64,000 nt of DNA from positions 4,352,001 through 4,416,000 of the forward strand of contig OZ242260.1 of NCBI GenBank assembly GCA_965207065.1, in the 5' to 3' direction. This stretch comes from a bacterium. Its GTDB lineage: Bacteria > UBA8248. Shown here in pieces: positions 36,182 through 43,170 of the stretch (positions within the stretch are counted from its first letter, which is position 1; each line of letters begins with the position of its first letter). Below the pieces are notes generated by a model. That model was not told the origin of the DNA. It ran no database searches and saw only the letters and a program-made list of their open reading frames with translations. The translations under genes and the position numbers were made by a program.

Positions 36182-37087
36182 ATGGCGCGCAAGGCAACGA
36201 AAAAAATCGCATTCCTGGGTTTGGGCCGCATGGGCGGATTAATGACGAAACACCAGGTCGATGCCGGCTTTCCCGTCACGGGCTACGACCCCGTGCCCAA
36301 AGCCGTCGCGGCGGCCAAGAAAAACGGAGCCAAAACCGCCAGAACCGTCGCAGCGGCGGTGAAGGGCGCCGATGTGGTGTGCAGTTCGCTCCCCTCTCCC
36401 GCCGTCGTCAGAAGCGTATACCTGGGACCCAAGGGCGTGATCGAGACGGCGCGCCGCGGCGCGGTCTGCTTTGAGCTTTCGACGAGCACCGTCAGCCTGG
36501 CGAAGGAGATCGCCGAGGCGGCGAAGAAAAAGGGAATCGCCTTTCTGGACGCGCCCGTGAGCGGGAGCATTCCGCACCTGGAACGCAAGGAAGTCGCCGC
36601 CATCGTGGGCGGAGACCAGGCCGCACTCAAAGAACACCGCGACGTGCTCGACGCCTTCAGCAAATCCATCACCTACATGGGAAAATCCGGAAACGGCCTG
36701 ATCATGAAACTGGTGACCAACCACATCCTGAACATCCAGCATTCCGGCATGGCCGAGGGTCTCGCTTTCGGTATGAAGGCGGGACTGACTGCCCCCAAGA
36801 TGATGAAATTTTTGCAGGGAAGCGTGATTCCCCTGCTCATCCACTACAAGGGTACTACGATGGCGGCGCGCGATTATTCCGACGTCATCGCGAACCTGGG
36901 GATAAGCTTCAAGGATTTGGGACTCAGCATCAACGAGGCGAACGATCTGGGCGCCCCCGTTCCCCTGGGCGCCGCCGCGCGCCAGCAATACACCTCCGCC
37001 ATGGCGTTAGGCCTCGAAGATGCGGATTTCAACGCCGTTTTCGAGTCGTTCCTGAACGCCATGGGCACGAAGCCGAAGAGAAAATAA
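36182..37087 (+). CDS. 3-hydroxyisobutyrate dehydrogenase-family oxidoreductase (copy 1)
   Basis: GLGRMG, DAPVSG and MKLVTN. Confidence 0.9.
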   Translation: MARKATKKIAFLGLGRMGGLMTKHQVDAGFPVTGYDPVPKAVAAAKKNGAKTARTVAAAVKGADVVCSSLPSPAVVRSVYLGPKGVIETARRGAVCFELSTSTVSLAKEIAEAAKKKGIAFLDAPVSGSIPHLERKEVAAIVGGDQAALKEHRDVLDAFSKSITYMGKSGNGLIMKLVTNHILNIQHSGMAEGLAFGMKAGLTAPKMMKFLQGSVIPLLIHYKGTTMAARDYSDVIANLGISFKDLGLSINEANDLGAPVPLGAAARQQYTSAMALGLEDADFNAVFESFLNAMGTKPKRK

Positions 37088-37216: not shown

Positions 37217-38122
37217 ATGGCGCGCAAGGCAAAGAAGAAGATCGCATTTCTCGGCCTGGGCCGCATGGGCGGACTGATGGCGAAACACCTGGTTGACGCT
37301 GGCTTCGACGTCACCGGTTACGACCCTGAACCAAAGGCCGTCGCGACGGCAAAGAGGAACGGCGCGAAAATCGCGAAAACAGTTGCGGCGACCGTCACAG
37401 GCGCGGAAGTGGTGTGCAGTTCGCTTCCCAAAACCGATATCGTGAGGAACGTCTACCTGGGCAAAGGCGGCGCGCTCAAGGCCATGCGGCGGGGCGCGGT
37501 CTGTTTCGATCTTTCGACGAGCAGCGTCGCCCTGGCGAAAGAGATCGCCGCTGAAGCCAAGAAGAAAGGAATCGCCTTCCTGGACGCTCCCGTGCTCGGA
37601 AGCGTTCCGCACCTGGAGCAAAAGGGAGTCTCTGCCATCGTGGGCGGAGACGAGTCCGCTCTCAAGGAACACCGCGACGTGCTCGACGCTTTCAGCAAGT
37701 CGGTCACCTATATGGGGAAATCCGGAAACGGCCTGCTCATGAAGCTGGTGTCGAACCACATCATCTTTATTCAGCACGCCGGCATGGCCGAAGGCCTGGC
37801 GTTCGGGGTGAAGGCGGGTCTCACGGCCCGGAAAATGATGAAATTCCTGCAAGGGAGCGTGATTCCGGACCTGATCCACTACAAAGGCCCAGAGATGGCG
37901 GCGCGCGATTATTCCAACGTCATCGGGCACCTGGGGCTGAGTTACAAGGATATGGGTATCAGCGTCAACGAGGCGAACGATTTGGGCGTCCCTGTCCCTA
38001 TTGGCGCCGCCGCGCGACAGCAACACACCTCCGCCATGGCGCTCGGTTTCGAGCACGCGGACTTGAACGCGGTTTTCGAGGCTTTCCTGAACGCCATGGG
38101 AATGAAGCCGATGAGAATATAA
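37217..38122 (+). CDS. 3-hydroxyisobutyrate dehydrogenase-family oxidoreductase (copy 2)
   Basis: GLGRMG, DAPVLG and MKLVSN; close paralogue of copy 1. Confidence 0.9.
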   Translation: MARKAKKKIAFLGLGRMGGLMAKHLVDAGFDVTGYDPEPKAVATAKRNGAKIAKTVAATVTGAEVVCSSLPKTDIVRNVYLGKGGALKAMRRGAVCFDLSTSSVALAKEIAAEAKKKGIAFLDAPVLGSVPHLEQKGVSAIVGGDESALKEHRDVLDAFSKSVTYMGKSGNGLLMKLVSNHIIFIQHAGMAEGLAFGVKAGLTARKMMKFLQGSVIPDLIHYKGPEMAARDYSNVIGHLGLSYKDMGISVNEANDLGVPVPIGAAARQQHTSAMALGFEHADLNAVFEAFLNAMGMKPMRI

Positions 38123-38255: not shown

Positions 38256-39134
38256 ATGGCGAAAGTGGTTGCTTTTCTGGGTCTCGGCAACATGGGTTCG
38301 GGCATGTCGGACAATCTGGTGAAGGCGGGTTTCGAAGTCCGGGGCTTCGACCCCGTCCCCGCCGCGCGCGAGCGGGCGGCCTCGGCTGGTCTCGCAGTCT
38401 TCGAGACGGCGGCGGAAGCCGCTACGGGCGCAGAGGTCATCTGCAGTTCGGTGCCCGAAGTCGAGCACGCGATAGAAGCCTATCTGGGTGAGACCGGTGC
38501 GCTCACCACTGCTGCCGATGGCGCGGTCTGCTTCGACCTGTCGACACTGACGGTCGAGGGCAGCCAGGAACTCGCCGGGGAGGCGAAAAAACTAGGCGTC
38601 CAGTTTCTCGACACCCCCGTGAGCGGGAGCGTGCCCCACGCGAGGGCGGGAACCTTGGCCATCATGGTGGGGGGCGATGAAGCTTCGCTCGAGGCCCACC
38701 GCGACGTTCTGGAGGCCTTCAGCGCCTCGATCCACTACTTCGGCGCGAACGGGGCGGGCCTCCAGATGAAGCTGGTGACGAATCACATCTTTGCGATCCA
38801 TATCTCCGCCATCGCCGAGGCGCTGACCATGGGGACGAAGGGGGGCCTGGACCCCGAGCTGATGGTCGAGTTCCTGAAGGCGAGCGTGATCCCGAAAATT
38901 CTCGAGTACAAGGCCTCACCCATGATTGCCAAGAACTACACGCCCACGTTCACGATAAACCTGATGCTCAAGGATCTGCGCATCATCGCTGCGATGGCCG
39001 ACGGCATCGGGACGCCGATCCCGCTGGGGACGATGGCGCGGCAGGTCTATATGAGCGCGGCCGCCCTGGGCCACGGGGACGCGGACCAGAACGCCATTTT
39101 AGAGTTTTTTGAAAAAGGTGCTGGGATGGATTAG
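38256..39134 (+). CDS. 3-hydroxyisobutyrate dehydrogenase-family oxidoreductase (copy 3)
   Basis: GLGNMG, DTPVSG and MKLVTN. Confidence 0.9.
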   Translation: MAKVVAFLGLGNMGSGMSDNLVKAGFEVRGFDPVPAARERAASAGLAVFETAAEAATGAEVICSSVPEVEHAIEAYLGETGALTTAADGAVCFDLSTLTVEGSQELAGEAKKLGVQFLDTPVSGSVPHARAGTLAIMVGGDEASLEAHRDVLEAFSASIHYFGANGAGLQMKLVTNHIFAIHISAIAEALTMGTKGGLDPELMVEFLKASVIPKILEYKASPMIAKNYTPTFTINLMLKDLRIIAAMADGIGTPIPLGTMARQVYMSAAALGHGDADQNAILEFFEKGAGMD

Positions 39135-39405: not shown

Positions 39406-40605
39406 ATGTCAAAGACAGGACGGGACCTGCTCGAGGCCGCGCGGGGCGATGTTCCTGAGATCACGGCGGAAGAAGTGAAGACCGCTATCGATTCGGGCGC
39501 CGAGGTGGCGCTCATCGACGTGCGCGAACCCGACGAGTTCCGGGGCGGCTACCTGCCGGGCGCCGAGCACGTGAGCCGCGGATTCCTGGAACTCAAGATC
39601 GAACAGGTCGTTCCCGATAGGACGACGCCCATCGTCGCTTACTGCGCGGGCGGCGTGCGCTCGCTGCTCGCGGGCCAGGCGCTGCAATCCATGGGCTATC
39701 AGAACGTGAAATCCATGGCCGGCGGATACGGGAAGTGGAAAGACCTGGCCTTTCCCGTGCAAGTGGACAAGCAGATGAGCGCCGAGCAGTTAAACCGCTA
39801 CAGCCGCCACTTCCTGCTCTCCCAGATCGGGGAAAAAGGCCAGTCCAAACTCCTGGACGCCAAGGTCGTCCTGATAGGCGCGGGAGGTCTGGGCTCTCCC
39901 ACCGGTCTTTACCTGACCGCCATGGGGGTGGGCAACATCGGCATCGTGGACCTGGACGTCGTGGACATGAGCAACCTGCAGCGCCAGATCGTCCACACGA
40001 ACGACCGCGTGGGAATCTCCAAGGTCGAGAGCGCGACAGCTACCCTCACCGCGCTGAACCCGGACGTGAACGTCATCGCGCACGAAGATAGAATCAACCG
40101 CGACAACGCGCTCGACATCCTCAAAGACTACGACGTCATCGTGAACGGGGCGGACAACTTCCCGACGCGCTACCTCGTGAACGACGCGGCGGTATTTCTC
40201 GGGAAACCCATCGTCGACGCCTCCATCTTCAAGTTCGAGGGCCAGGCCACCGTCTATCATCCCGGAGAGGGCGGCCCCTGCTACCGCTGCCTCTACCCCG
40301 AACCGCCGCCACCCGGCATGGTGCCCTCCTGTCAGGACGCAGGCGTGCTCGGCGCGCTTTGCGGCACCATGGGATCCATCCAGGCGACGGAGACGGCCAA
40401 ACTCATCGTTGGCTTCGGCGAACCGCTGATCGGCAAGCTGCTGATGTACGACGCGCTCAAGTCGCAGTTCAGGACGCTCAAGATCAGGCGCGACCCCGCC
40501 TGCCCGGTGTGCGGAGACAGCCCCTCCATCACCGAGCTCATCGACTATGAGTTCTTCTGCGGCCTCACGGAAGCACCCGCCGGCGGCGCCGCCAACGGTC
40601 ATTGA
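39406..40605 (+). CDS. moeB: Rhodanese-MoeB/ThiF adenylyltransferase (MoeZ-like)
   Basis: N-terminal rhodanese (DVREPDE, YCAGGVRS), RYSRH, GAGGLG, SNLQRQ and two CxxC. Confidence 0.9.
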   Translation: MSKTGRDLLEAARGDVPEITAEEVKTAIDSGAEVALIDVREPDEFRGGYLPGAEHVSRGFLELKIEQVVPDRTTPIVAYCAGGVRSLLAGQALQSMGYQNVKSMAGGYGKWKDLAFPVQVDKQMSAEQLNRYSRHFLLSQIGEKGQSKLLDAKVVLIGAGGLGSPTGLYLTAMGVGNIGIVDLDVVDMSNLQRQIVHTNDRVGISKVESATATLTALNPDVNVIAHEDRINRDNALDILKDYDVIVNGADNFPTRYLVNDAAVFLGKPIVDASIFKFEGQATVYHPGEGGPCYRCLYPEPPPPGMVPSCQDAGVLGALCGTMGSIQATETAKLIVGFGEPLIGKLLMYDALKSQFRTLKIRRDPACPVCGDSPSITELIDYEFFCGLTEAPAGGAANGH

Positions 40606-40666
40606 TGGGAACTAAACAGGCCGTCAAGCAGATATAGGGAATCAACGAAAGCCGAACCATAATACA

Positions 40667-40697
40667 CCCCCGGGGCGAAATGTTCCGGGGGTTTTTC
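40667..40697 (+). terminator. Rho-independent terminator after moeB
   Basis: CCCCCGGGGC-GAAAT-GTTCCGGGGG followed by TTTTT. Confidence 0.8.
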
Positions 40698-40714
40698 TAA
40701 GTCCTACATGAAAA

Positions 40715-40757
40715 TCAAAAAATATTTCTTGCAAAACAATAATTTTTGACTTATAGT
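40715..40757 (+). promoter_or_regulatory. Sigma70-like promoter of the RT cassette with flanking inverted repeat
   Basis: TTGCAA (40729-34), 17 bp, TATAGT (40752-57); inverted repeat 40715-26/40738-49 (11 of 12 bp). Confidence 0.6.
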
Positions 40758-40763
40758 TAGAAA

Positions 40764-41455
40764 AGATGTGGCAGGGTGATTCGCCCTGTATGTTCTTTGA
40801 CAATCCATCTTCGGGTATGGTGTTTAGGCCTACCATCTGACGCCTCTCCAAGCGTTCGTTTTTCTGGGTGCTTGCTCTTGAAATTTAGGCAATGCCTAAA
40901 ATCCAGTGTAAAACTCCGAACACTGTGATTACCCGTTTTATGCAGCCTGAGACATATCGATGCTTCAGCCCTTTCTTGGGGAGCATCGGTTCTTTGGTCA
41001 GTAAGCATTTGAAAATGAAGTATGCATATAACGGGCGTTCGCTCTATTGATGGACATTATAGGCGGGCTAACGAATGAGGGGTCTTAAGGGAGACTCCGC
41101 CAGTTTCTAGTCGAGAACAGAGGAGGTGAACAGATGAAAATAACTTAAGCACCAATAAATTCCGCCCGCCTGATTTATCCACAGAATAGGAAAATAAAAA
41201 AATGGATAAAAATCGAAACTCGAAGATGGGCCTTGAGAGGGCCGCAAAAGACATTATCAAAGTCGGTTACAAACTTCTTCGACAACAAAGCGACCCTCTC
41301 ATGGCGGGGACTTCAAAAGTAGTTCGTCGCCGACTCAAGCAGTTGGAACGTCAGCTACAAAATAAGCGAGTTCCACTTCCACAAAAAGAATTGGACAAAA
41401 TCGCTACAGAAGTCGCTGACACGATTAGCTGTCTTATGAAGTCCCTCATTCGTTA
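40764..41455 (+). ncRNA. Putative retron msr/msd-containing structured (hybrid) RNA overlapping the small ORF
   Basis: Many stems, e.g. 40884-40900, 40932-44/41023-35, 40958-88, 41061-68/41164-71, 41069-81/41443-55, 41230-45/41290-305 and 41306-15/41437-46; lies upstream of a retron RT. Boundaries inferred. Confidence 0.6.
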
Positions 41456-41522
41456 CTTATTTTCCGCAATCCACCATTGCGAGTTATTCATAGTATGGAA
41501 ACTAAAATTGGCAACACATTAA
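41202..41522 (+). CDS. Small orphan protein, putative retron effector
   Basis: 106 aa, basic and helical with hydrophobic C-terminus; AGGA SD; overlaps the HTH start by 28 nt. Confidence 0.55.
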   Translation: MDKNRNSKMGLERAAKDIIKVGYKLLRQQSDPLMAGTSKVVRRRLKQLERQLQNKRVPLPQKELDKIATEVADTISCLMKSLIRYLFSAIHHCELFIVWKLKLATH

Positions 41523-41800
41523 AAGTATTAAGGGTGGCTGCAGGCATAAACCAAGCGACCATGGCAAAAAGGCTAGAAATTACCCAAAATTATTTATCAC
41601 TTGTCGAAAATAACCACAAAGAACCAAGTCTCTCTTTTCTAAAAAAGTTCGCCGGCAATTTTGACATTCCCCTCGGGTATTTTTTGTGGCTCGCATTGGA
41701 TAAACAAGAAAATAACGAGGAAGAAGAGTTACGTGAAAAAATGGACTTGTTGCTAGAGCAAATATTGGTAGGCAGAAGAAAAAAAAATGCCTGGAAATAA
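41495..41800 (+). CDS. XRE/Cro-C1 family HTH protein (retron-associated)
   Basis: IGNTLKVLR..AGINQ..MA..L.ITQNYLS.VENN.KEPSL..L; ATG 41495. Confidence 0.9.
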   Translation: METKIGNTLKVLRVAAGINQATMAKRLEITQNYLSLVENNHKEPSLSFLKKFAGNFDIPLGYFLWLALDKQENNEEEELREKMDLLLEQILVGRRKKNAWK

Positions 41801-42734
41801 AAAGGCAAAATTAAAATCATTCTGGAACATACGAACGTCGAAAGATTTGTCACGCCTGCTCGGTGTAAAAGAAGAAATCTTAAACAAGATTTCGCAATCA
41901 GCACATTTGATGTACCGATCGCGAAATGAGCCTAAGAAAACTGGAGGGACTAGGCCAATAGACAGTCCTAGTAGTCATCTAAAATGGATACAATCAAAGA
42001 TTAACAAGTGTTTATTGCAAAGAACTCGCGTCCATAAATCTGCAATGGGAGGTATCCGCGGTAAAAGATTGAAAGACAATGCGGAAAAACATGTAGGAAA
42101 AAATTTAGTTGGCAAATTCGATTTAGAAAATTACTTTACTAACATTTCTCATAAGCAAGTCTATAATCGATTTTGCTCTATGGGGTGCTCCCCAGATGTG
42201 GCTAGAATTCTCACTAAACTAACAACATATAAAGGAAGAATTCCCCAAGGAGCGCCAACAAGTACTATGCTTGCGAATTTAGTAGCTGCTTATGCAAGAG
42301 ACAATCATAGTTTCAATGCAAGGATTGATTCGCTGGCTAGAAAACGTAATGCAACCGCTACTACCTGGGTTGATGATGTCACAATCTCGGGCCCATGTTA
42401 TATCCAAAAAGAAGCCAATACTTTCGAGAAAATTGCCAGGCAAAGTGGTTTCATTCCAAACACTGATAAAAATGAATTCATAAACAGCAACCAGCAACAA
42501 TTCGTCACTGGGGCAGTTGTCAATCAAAAAGTAAGCGCCTCAAAAGACTACAGAAAAGCTATACGAGCCGAACTCCATCAACTAAAAGTCCATGGTCCAA
42601 GCAACATTTGCAAAGAACCAATCAAAAAAGTAAAGGCGAAGCTTCGGAGCAAAATTGCACATGTAGACAATCTGAACCACGAACAAGGTGAAAAACTTCT
42701 AAAAGAATTCAACGCTATCGACTGGGACTCTTAA
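41787..42734 (+). CDS. Retron-type reverse transcriptase
   Basis: PKKTGGTRPI, LKWIQ, NAEKH (region X NAxxH), FDLENYF, IPQGAPTS, WVDD, FVTGAVVN (region Y VTG); 315 aa with no fused domain. Confidence 0.93.
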   Translation: MPGNKKAKLKSFWNIRTSKDLSRLLGVKEEILNKISQSAHLMYRSRNEPKKTGGTRPIDSPSSHLKWIQSKINKCLLQRTRVHKSAMGGIRGKRLKDNAEKHVGKNLVGKFDLENYFTNISHKQVYNRFCSMGCSPDVARILTKLTTYKGRIPQGAPTSTMLANLVAAYARDNHSFNARIDSLARKRNATATTWVDDVTISGPCYIQKEANTFEKIARQSGFIPNTDKNEFINSNQQQFVTGAVVNQKVSASKDYRKAIRAELHQLKVHGPSNICKEPIKKVKAKLRSKIAHVDNLNHEQGEKLLKEFNAIDWDS

Positions 42735-42813
42735 AAGTCGCCAAACATAAGAAATATCTAAACAAAAACACTGAGAAACTTAAAAAAACTAACTCCTCCA
42801 ATCAGAAAAATCC

Positions 42814-43170
42814 CTACCCAACCTCCTCCAGCCTGGCCGCATCCATCACCGGTCTTATGGGGTATTGGCCCCGCAGGAGTTCGGCGAGAAAACCCAGGTG
42901 TTCGGCGAGGGCCGACATGTGCGCGGCGGCGTAGCGGGCGGATAGCGCACCGGCCTCTTGCGCCAGGGCTTCGCGCGCATCTGTGGCGGGAGCCTCCTGG
43001 GCGGCCAGGGCGTTAAAGGCATCAAGCAGGGCGCAGATGTCTTCATGCGCTCCCGCATATTCCGTCTTCAGCGCATAGGGGCTTCTCAGGATGAGGTGCA
43101 CGGGGTTTTGCGTGTTCGATGACTGATCGAGCATGCAGCGGCTTCGTCTCTGGTCGTAGTTTTCGGGCAT
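42814..43170 (-). CDS. Hypothetical protein
   Basis: ATG 43170 with GAGG SD directly downstream of the MBL gene; host-like GC. Confidence 0.5.
   Translation of the reverse strand: MPENYDQRRSRCMLDQSSNTQNPVHLILRSPYALKTEYAGAHEDICALLDAFNALAAQEAPATDAREALAQEAGALSARYAAAHMSALAEHLGFLAELLRGQYPIRPVMDAARLEEVG

Follow-up and report, generated by a model that had tools for sequence, protein, structure and literature searches.

A Type VI retron cassette and its relatives

We analysed a 64,000-nucleotide (nt) stretch of a bacterial genome of the GTDB lineage UBA8248 (assembly GCA_965207065.1, contig OZ242260.1, forward-strand positions 4,352,001 to 4,416,000), hereafter the window, and focused on a Shine-Dalgarno (SD) box in the leader RNA of a retron that it carries. 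The retron cassette forms an island of 37–44% GC (40690–42760) in a genome of ~62% GC. A leader of ~440 nt is followed by the open reading frame (ORF) of SP, by a helix-turn-helix (HTH) gene and by a reverse transcriptase (RT) gene, which is the Type VI order SP-HTH-RT. The RT is of the retron clade, and its best PADLOC match was RT_VI, with a slight margin over RT_III-A (6.5e-67). The HTH gene lies directly upstream of the RT gene and overlaps its start (41787), and is itself preceded by a small accessory gene; homologous SPs occupy the same position in the relatives with enough upstream sequence. The upstream non-coding RNA (ncRNA) is structured and has a conserved hairpin as well as 5′ and 3′ inverted repeats. 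By these features of its sequence, the cassette is a Type VI retron. SP matched no Pfam family, and an Rfam scan of 40500–43000 with E values up to 10 returned only a chance match of microRNA type. The HTH_VI model was tried as a probe for Type VI loci and rejected as unspecific, as it matched 13 of 14 control genomes.

Type VI is the one retron type in which the reverse-transcribed DNA reportedly switches on the translation of the toxin rather than holding the toxin in check. A box next to the priming repeat gives a concrete handle on how the leader RNA does so. A word search with SP found only five close homologues, whereas a search with the RT found 116 at E ≤ 1e-20. Thirty-seven RTs were aligned, and 52 genome loci and 80 metagenome loci were fetched. 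Homologous SP and HTH genes were present in all loci with an RT identity of at least 43% and enough upstream DNA. Leaders were taken from 28 loci, giving 25 that are distinct at the box site, and the 23 complete ones were aligned (RT identity 43–84%, mean column identity 52%). The closest relative of the window is locus L001.

An invariant SD box in the leader

The SD box AGGAGGTGA was unchanged in all 23 aligned leaders and is the longest invariant run of the leader. It lies 1–2 nt downstream of the 3′ repeat, and there was no insertion or deletion between the repeat and the box across the alignment. Four further leaders that cover the site read AGGAGGTGA (L082), GGGAGGTGA (L005), GGGGGTGA (L053), and AGGAGATGA (L079). 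The 3′ end of the host 16S rRNA (genome contig G000:C1, 1914131–1915682) is GGATCACCTCCTT, and nine contiguous nt of it pair with the box. Despite this extended complementarity, 19 of the 25 distinct leaders have no ATG, GTG, or TTG 4–9 nt after the box, so that it has the form of a ribosome-binding site (RBS) with no start codon. The box is better conserved than the RBS of SP, which has decayed in the window, L001, L053, L054, L073, and L079. On this comparative evidence, the box is a real, strongly selected cis-element of the leader RNA in one Type VI retron lineage.

The initial annotation of the window had described a consensus SD, AGGAGGTG at 41121–41128, followed after 5 nt (AACAG) by a four-codon ORF, ATG AAA ATA ACT TAA at 41134–41148. 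These letters and coordinates were right. The box is also the best SD of the cassette, as had been stated; judged by eye, the starts of SP, HTH, and RT have a weak SD or none. The alternative that had been offered, a decayed gene start, does not fit a box that stays unchanged between lineages with only 43–50% RT identity.

The window holds five copies of the octamer AGGAGGTG where 1.13 are expected, a number reached in 2 of 100 shuffles, and ten of AGGAGG-N4-9-ATG where 2.47 are expected, a number reached in none of 100. The excess of the latter indicates that the host uses such sites. Among the 22 GGAGG-N4-9-ATG sites of the window, six lead into frames of at most 10 codons, and an SD with an ATG and a short frame is thus unremarkable in itself.

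Outside the lineage, 80 more distant RT loci lack the box apart from ordinary single sites: within 1200 nt upstream, AGGAGGT or GGAGGTG occurs once in 14 of them and twice in none. Two pattern scans of viral contigs each gave upwards of 100 ordinary phage RBS sites, and among the 222 loci put through a filter none had the retron leader. Two viral loci with a 9-mer like the 5′ repeat upstream were rejected, as they proved to be one phage gene start.

A second exact copy of GGATCACCTCCTT is present in the host genome (G000:C1, 1319152–1319164; locus L153), ~150 nt before a tRNA gene and outside any detected 16S gene. It was considered as the host 16S gene and rejected because it is not within one; the other of the two genome matches is the gene. 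The copy may be a remnant of an rRNA operon.

The frame behind the box

The same SD followed by ATG and a short frame is not a feature of the family. When the 25 distinct leaders were inspected 4–9 nt downstream of the box, ATG with four codons and a stop was found in two, the window and L001. Four leaders have TTG or GTG with frames of 16–37 codons, 11 have CTG only with frames of 4–130 codons (the entry for L062 was read by eye from its leader sequence and the alignment), and eight have none of these four codons. Since chance gives as much for a span of six positions, the two cases, about one ATG-bearing lineage in ten, are not in excess. Start, stop, and length, which a regulatory upstream ORF (uORF) would be expected to keep, are therefore not conserved among the homologous leaders. 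Identity between the window and L001 is 74% over the leader, and 12 of 15 letters agree in the mini-ORF, so that the survival of the six letters of ATG and TAA is not significant. A near-identical variant in contigs of the sequencing runs X4 (DNA) and X9 (RNA library) keeps ATG and TAA and has AAA for ATA; runs X3 and X5 added no variation. The peptide varies accordingly (MKIT, MKKT, MKKI).

The four-codon frame is probably a lineage-specific, incidental by-product of the conserved box, and a neat SD-ATG-stop in one sequence can arise in this way. The check that had been suggested, conservation of the SD with ATG and a short stop, thus gave a split result, with the box kept in all 23 aligned leaders and the frame confined to two of 25 and a near-identical variant. 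Likewise, the suggestion of a ribosome-loading uORF that gates the effector is supported for the box as an upstream selected element, for which ribosome loading or gating of SP translation is plausible, and is unsupported for the mini-ORF as a functional unit.

Two other frames were considered. CTG as a conserved start was rejected because of its widely differing frames; the CTG belongs to CCUGA, the pairing partner of UCAGG in the 5′ segment. A conserved ORF running through the box (‘...NQRAKEV...’ in spurious ORFs of the relatives) was rejected because starts, lengths, and frame differ and its upstream part is a covarying hairpin.

Structure of the leader RNA

The leader fold had a z-score of −9.3. 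Helices were identified with RNAalifold and by counting pairs on the alignment of 23 leaders, and the ensemble of the window was computed on a 787-nt RNA of leader plus SP. Partition-function folds were computed for 19 leaders (L073, L076, and L078 were left out). The coordinates of all features are collected in Table 1.

Table 1. Features of the retron cassette (window coordinates).
Feature	Position	Strand	Evidence or remark
Promoter-like site, TTGCAA-17-TATAGT	40729..40757	+	−10 region TATAGTTA at the same place in relatives
5′ hairpin P0, GCAGGGTG-ATT-CGCCCTGT	40771..40789	+	6 of 8 pairs change on both sides; 99.5% of cells paired
5′ repeat GTTCTTTGA, a1-like	40792..40800	+	Reads G[CT]TCTTTGA in all relatives whose upstream sequence is long enough
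H5, 5′ strand of long-range helix	40805..40815	+	10 of 12 pairs change on both sides; probability in the window 0.998
CU-rich 5′ segment	40818..40847	+	40841–47 (CGCCTCT, 16S-like anti-SD) predicted to pair with the box
Long variable hairpin, candidate msd-like template for reverse transcription	40932..41035	+	Mean pair probability in the window 0.88; variable block of the alignment
5′ arm of the stem in the initial annotation, AGGCGGGC	41061..41068	+	Exact 8-nt inverted repeat with 41164–71
3′ repeat AGAACA, a2-like	41114..41119	+	Complementary to TGTTCT at 40791–96; TCAAAGAGC in most relatives
Invariant SD box AGGAGGTGA	41121..41129	+	Same letters in all 23 aligned leaders; pairs over 9 nt with the host 16S 3′ end
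Mini-ORF ATG AAA ATA ACT TAA	41134..41148	+	ATG, four codons, and stop in 2 of 25 leaders; variant ATA>AAA at 41141 (runs X4, X9)
3′ arm of the stem in the initial annotation, GCCCGCCT	41164..41171	+	Unpaired in the minimum free energy fold of the window
SP-start hairpin	41171..41215	+	ATG 41202 in the stem, AGGA in the loop; 41174–81/41203–10 mean probability 0.71; same arms in L001
SP ORF, 106 aa, putative toxic effector	41202..41522	+	Homologous SPs in all SP-HTH-RT relatives
H3, 3′ strand of long-range helix, in SP codons 6–10	41219..41229	+	Covaries with H5 across 23 leaders
HTH gene, Cro/C1 type	41495..41800	+	HTH_3 4e-11; PADLOC HTH_VI 4.1e-25
Retron reverse transcriptase	41787..42734	+	RVT_1 1e-14; PADLOC RT_VI 3.2e-67

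The 5′ hairpin P0 stands directly upstream of the 5′ repeat. The helix between the 5′ and 3′ repeats (GYTCTTTGA with TCAAAGAGC), which resembles the a1-a2 pairing of retrons, was paired in 96.6% and shows a single change from C-G to U-A, in the window and L001. A second long-range helix joins H5 to H3 inside the SP coding sequence, and this covariation suggests that the template and the SP coding sequence are in one RNA. It also indicates that the coding sequence of the effector is constrained by RNA structure.

The CU-rich 5′ segment would engage the box and the mini-ORF together. In the predicted fold of the window, 40841–47 pairs with 41122–28 (probability 0.59–1.0), 40834–39 pairs with CAGATG, which includes the mini-ORF start, and 40818–28 pairs with 41144–54, which includes its stop. 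The unpaired probability was 0.23 for the box and 0.00 for the mini-ORF ATG. Across the 19 folded leaders that of the box was 0.03–0.36, and its partner was the 5′ CU-rich segment in 17. On the alignment the anti-SD/box helix was 87% paired, and its centre (column pair 85/586) was mismatched in 13 of 23 leaders. Cognate duplexes of the 5′ segment with the box and its flanks had a mean of −22.2 kcal/mol, compared with −19.5 kcal/mol for permuted ones (one representative per group; 100 of 20000 permutations were as good). The higher stability of cognate than of cross-group duplexes indicates that the flanks co-evolve with the 5′ segment. According to these folds, the letters of the mini-ORF would be largely accounted for by pairing with the 5′ segment.

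Since the a1-a2 helix crosses both H5-H3 and the anti-SD/box helix, they cannot be nested together and at least two folds are required. The stem that had been proposed to close a loop around the mini-ORF (41061–68 with 41164–71) is an exact inverted repeat, but all eight pairs had a probability of 0.000, and in L001 both arms are changed without complementarity.

The evidence from RNA libraries consists of one contig from run X9, a size-fractionated metatranscriptome; it spans 40983–41154 and continues into adapter letters, and shows neither transcription nor strand. Its end at 41154 is 6 nt past the mini-ORF stop, where the predicted helix with 40818 has its final base pair. This position may be a discrete RNA end and a weak hint of processing, seen in one contig of one run.

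The start region of SP and the direct repeats

The ATG of SP (41202) is 53 nt behind the TAA of the mini-ORF and in a different frame. Its SD is AGGA (41188–91), separated from the ATG by a 10-nt A-rich spacer. In the predicted hairpin of the window this SD lies in the loop (unpaired probability 0.83) with the ATG in the stem; across the 19 relatives the unpaired probability of the SP SD was 0.19–0.96. In most relatives the SP RBS is 38–76 nt past the box and has the same letters as the box (AAAGGAGGTGA). The two sites share the 7-mers AAGGAGG and AGGAGGT in 18 of 23 leaders, and share none in the window, L001, and L073. This was the sole recurrent direct repeat of at least 7 nt between the region before the box and the SP start region (18 of 23).

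An exact 8-nt direct repeat, GAAAATAA, is present at 41136–41143, within the mini-ORF in a predicted internal loop, and at 41190–41197, in the loop of the SP hairpin where it overlaps the spacer of the SP SD. It recalls the repeats that have been published for the msd loop and the riboregulator loop of Retron-Vpa2. A looser likeness is seen at both places in L001.

Comparison with known systems

Gene-less ribosome-binding elements upstream of the structured start of a small toxin, masked by RNA pairing until the RNA is remodelled or processed, are known from other settings, and the box would resemble them. The standby sites of tisB/istR-1, in type I toxin mRNAs, are an unstructured stretch and not a perfect SD, and STAB-SD 5′ stabilisers (cryIIIA) affect how stable an RNA is in Gram-positives. 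Both occur outside retrons, and the function of the box is a predicted one. The mini-ORF recalls the regulatory leader peptides and minimal uORFs of bacterial attenuators, in which a structured leader likewise carries a strong SD and a tiny frame ahead of a gene that is poorly initiated. The frames of erm and cat leaders and of start-stop elements are conserved among homologues and act through stalling, whereas that of the window is found in only two of the 25 leaders, with a peptide that varies.

Among retrons, the closest published counterpart is Retron-Vpa2. According to the main text of that report, the template and the mRNA of the toxic SP form one hybrid RNA, and SP is translationally repressed and switched on by multicopy single-stranded DNA (msDNA) (10.1101/2025.10.22.683967). 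Published work on Type VI reports that the translation of SP is repressed in an RNA of this kind, and also describes alternative conformations (Zhang et al., 10.1101/2025.10.22.683967; Garcia-Rodriguez et al., 10.64898/2026.04.27.721009). Like Retron-Vpa2 as described there, the cassette has an operon in the order SP-HTH-RT, a structured leader that would be continuous with the SP coding sequence, an SP start predicted to be in a hairpin, long-range repeats between the 5′ region and the SP region, and candidate direct repeats upstream of and at the start region of SP translation. It differs in that the published text, apart from the figures and supplements that hold the letters of the repeats, mentions neither an SD box with no start codon nor an upstream mini-ORF. 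For Retron-Vpa2, conserved 7-nt direct repeats are described, with one copy in the template and the other in the proposed riboregulator (10.1101/2025.10.22.683967). By analogy with the repeats as described in that text, the direct repeat of box and SP RBS may be the counterpart of this lineage.

The eight gammaproteobacterial SP-HTH-RT loci that were inspected have no upstream SD box and instead have a recurrent repeat, (C/G)ACTGG. In six of them (L144, L145, L146, L148, L149, L150), all Type VI, P0 and the motif GYTCTTTRA are in common with the present lineage, and the (C/G)ACTGG repeat stands ~95–125 and 30–45 nt before the SP start. The best partner of their 5′ repeat was in the first SP codons in five of six, which resembles published architectures.

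The ncRNA of Retron-Sen3/cl2075, as far as the preprint text describes it, is similar in that it has a long hairpin of variable sequence in its interior, a sequence of RBS type on the 3′ side of the basal stem, and alternative long-range pairings with the SP region. The sequestered element there is the own RBS of SP, whereas here it would be a second copy, with no start codon, which precedes the SP start by 60–80 nt. The SP family probably also differs from that of Retron-Sen3, since the word search found only the five close homologues. The main text of the Sen3 preprint does not mention Shine, uORF, or leader peptide (10.64898/2026.04.27.721009).

A possible ribosome-landing site in the hybrid RNA

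We consider that the box is a masked ribosome-landing site, of the standby type, or a riboregulator site in the hybrid RNA, with the mini-ORF as a by-product of one lineage, and we give this reading a probability of about one half. In a closed fold, the H5-H3 and anti-SD/box helices would form and the 3′ repeat would be free; the box would be hidden and the start of the SP coding sequence held in a helix. Refolding into a retron-like fold with a1-a2 pairing, possibly together with reverse transcription, would expose the box. A 30S subunit could then bind to it beside the SP start region and aid the translation of the toxic SP. The ATG of the mini-ORF would stand by chance at the distance of a start codon, in a stretch set by pairing with the 5′ segment, and would not be needed for the mechanism of the family. 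If translated, the mini-ORF would provide only a start and a stop for a ribosome that has landed.

The preference for a landing site over a purely structural strand follows from the pattern of conservation. Nine letters that never change cannot be explained by an internal partner that is itself variable and often mismatched, whereas a universal partner in trans can explain them; the box is held at the sequence optimal for 16S although the centre of the internal helix is mismatched in more than half of the leaders. The strongest competitor, which we rate as a tentative alternative clearly behind the landing site, is that the box acts through RNA-RNA pairing only and meets no ribosome, either as an anti-anti-SD copy of the SP RBS that competes for the anti-SD segment or as a strand that closes the template domain. 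It would account for the predicted pairing of the box in 19 of 19 folded leaders, for the co-evolution of the flanks with the 5′ segment, and for the 7-mers common to box and SP RBS, and the conserved 7-nt direct repeats of Retron-Vpa2 belong to a proposed riboregulator (10.1101/2025.10.22.683967; the text does not give their letters). Pairing alone, however, would let the box drift as its flanks do, and yet the box stays invariant while its partner varies. Moreover, the box is perfect in the window, L001, and L073, where the SP RBS has decayed and nothing is left to mimic.

It is rather unlikely that the mini-ORF is a working uORF in the window, in which ribosomes starting at 41134 and stopping at 41146–48 would melt the helix with 40818–47 and hand over to, or unmask, the weak SP start. 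Such a role would fit the optimal spacing between SD and ATG, the retention of ATG, TAA, and the four-codon length in the window, L001, and the X4/X9 variant though three of nine inner letters differ between the window and L001, and the absence of indels in the mini-ORF compared with six gap columns in the 53-nt linker behind it. The SP RBS of the window and L001 is reduced to AGGA or AGGAG with the A-rich 10-nt spacer, and the mini-ORF stretch ATGAAAATAA of the window nearly repeats the SP RBS stretch AGGAAAATAA. Against it, the frame is missing in 23 of 25 leaders, including relatives with a decayed SP RBS (L073, L079, L053), and at the 74–80% identity of the window and L001 chance alone would preserve six given letters in about one of four cases. 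The buried ATG in the predicted ensemble, the variable peptide, and the unsupported closing stem point in the same direction. Less probable still is a protein-recognition or priming element, with the 3′ repeat and the box read by the RT or the HTH protein, or with the box in a priming duplex at the edge of or inside the template. The rigid spacing of repeat and box in all 23 aligned leaders would suit it, RT, HTH, and hybrid RNA form a complex in Retron-Vpa2 according to the text of that report (10.1101/2025.10.22.683967), and a co-evolving protein could also keep a sequence fixed; but the exact match to the optimal 16S complement would then be a coincidence, and RT and HTH diverge to 43–50% identity while the box is unchanged. 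A relic with no present function, left over from an older SP start or an RBS duplication, is the least credible of all. In its favour, the frame from a GTG inside the box is open into SP in L057 and L062, but a relic would decay, and no other stretch of the leader is as well conserved as the box across these lineages, which belong to several phyla. Its invariance brings this explanation close to refutation.

Several points nevertheless weigh against a ribosome-landing site. Ribosome binding at the box is purely what we infer. No pair of the anti-SD/box helix changes on both sides because the box is invariant, which makes proof by covariation impossible, and the CU-rich segment has a rival partner in GGGAG of the template region (columns 78–85 with 515–521; 89% paired, two covarying pairs). 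When the a1-a2 helix was forced in silico in nine representatives, the cost was 7–20 kcal/mol and the unpaired probability of the box rose only to 0.18–0.66, a rise too small and variable to demonstrate exposure of the box in the second fold. The box could also lie inside the reverse-transcribed template. ATG and TAA are retained in all three members of the sublineage of the window, the one with the weakest SP RBS, and the mini-ORF may have a local role there. Finally, SP of Retron-Sen3 is made constitutively according to the preprint text (10.64898/2026.04.27.721009), and translational gating is thus not universal in Type VI.

Beyond the landing site itself, we put forward as a speculative proposal that this lineage has built a ribosome sensor into the hybrid RNA, in which ribosome binding, the priming duplex, and effector translation would be mutually coupled. 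A perfect SD box with no start codon would be fused to the priming repeat, and a segment of the same RNA that mimics the 16S 3′ end would hold it. The pair of box and SP RBS would be the version, in this lineage, of the conserved direct repeats by which msDNA is proposed to activate the toxin, and in the sublineage of the window, where the SP RBS has decayed, initiation would have moved to the box with its four-codon start-stop frame. The box is an element to mutate and probe, since binding by ribosomes and pairing within the RNA can be told apart with compensatory changes.

Gene overlaps and neighbouring genes

Within the operon, the SP stop and HTH start overlap by 28 nt (41495–41522) and the HTH stop and RT start by 14 nt (41787–41800), an arrangement consistent with translational coupling. 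The retron is flanked on one side by a ThiF/MoeB-like gene with a rhodanese-like N-terminal part (39406–40605) and on the other by a convergent gene. The retron of L001 (1530–3945) stands behind the same ThiF/MoeB-like gene, whose product is identical except for the last residues, and its retron proteins are 78–84% identical to those of the window. Further upstream are three tandem paralogues of ~300 aa with an N-terminal GLGxMG dinucleotide-binding motif (36182–37087, 37217–38122, and 38256–39134), which by eye look like enzymes of the 3-hydroxyisobutyrate-dehydrogenase type.

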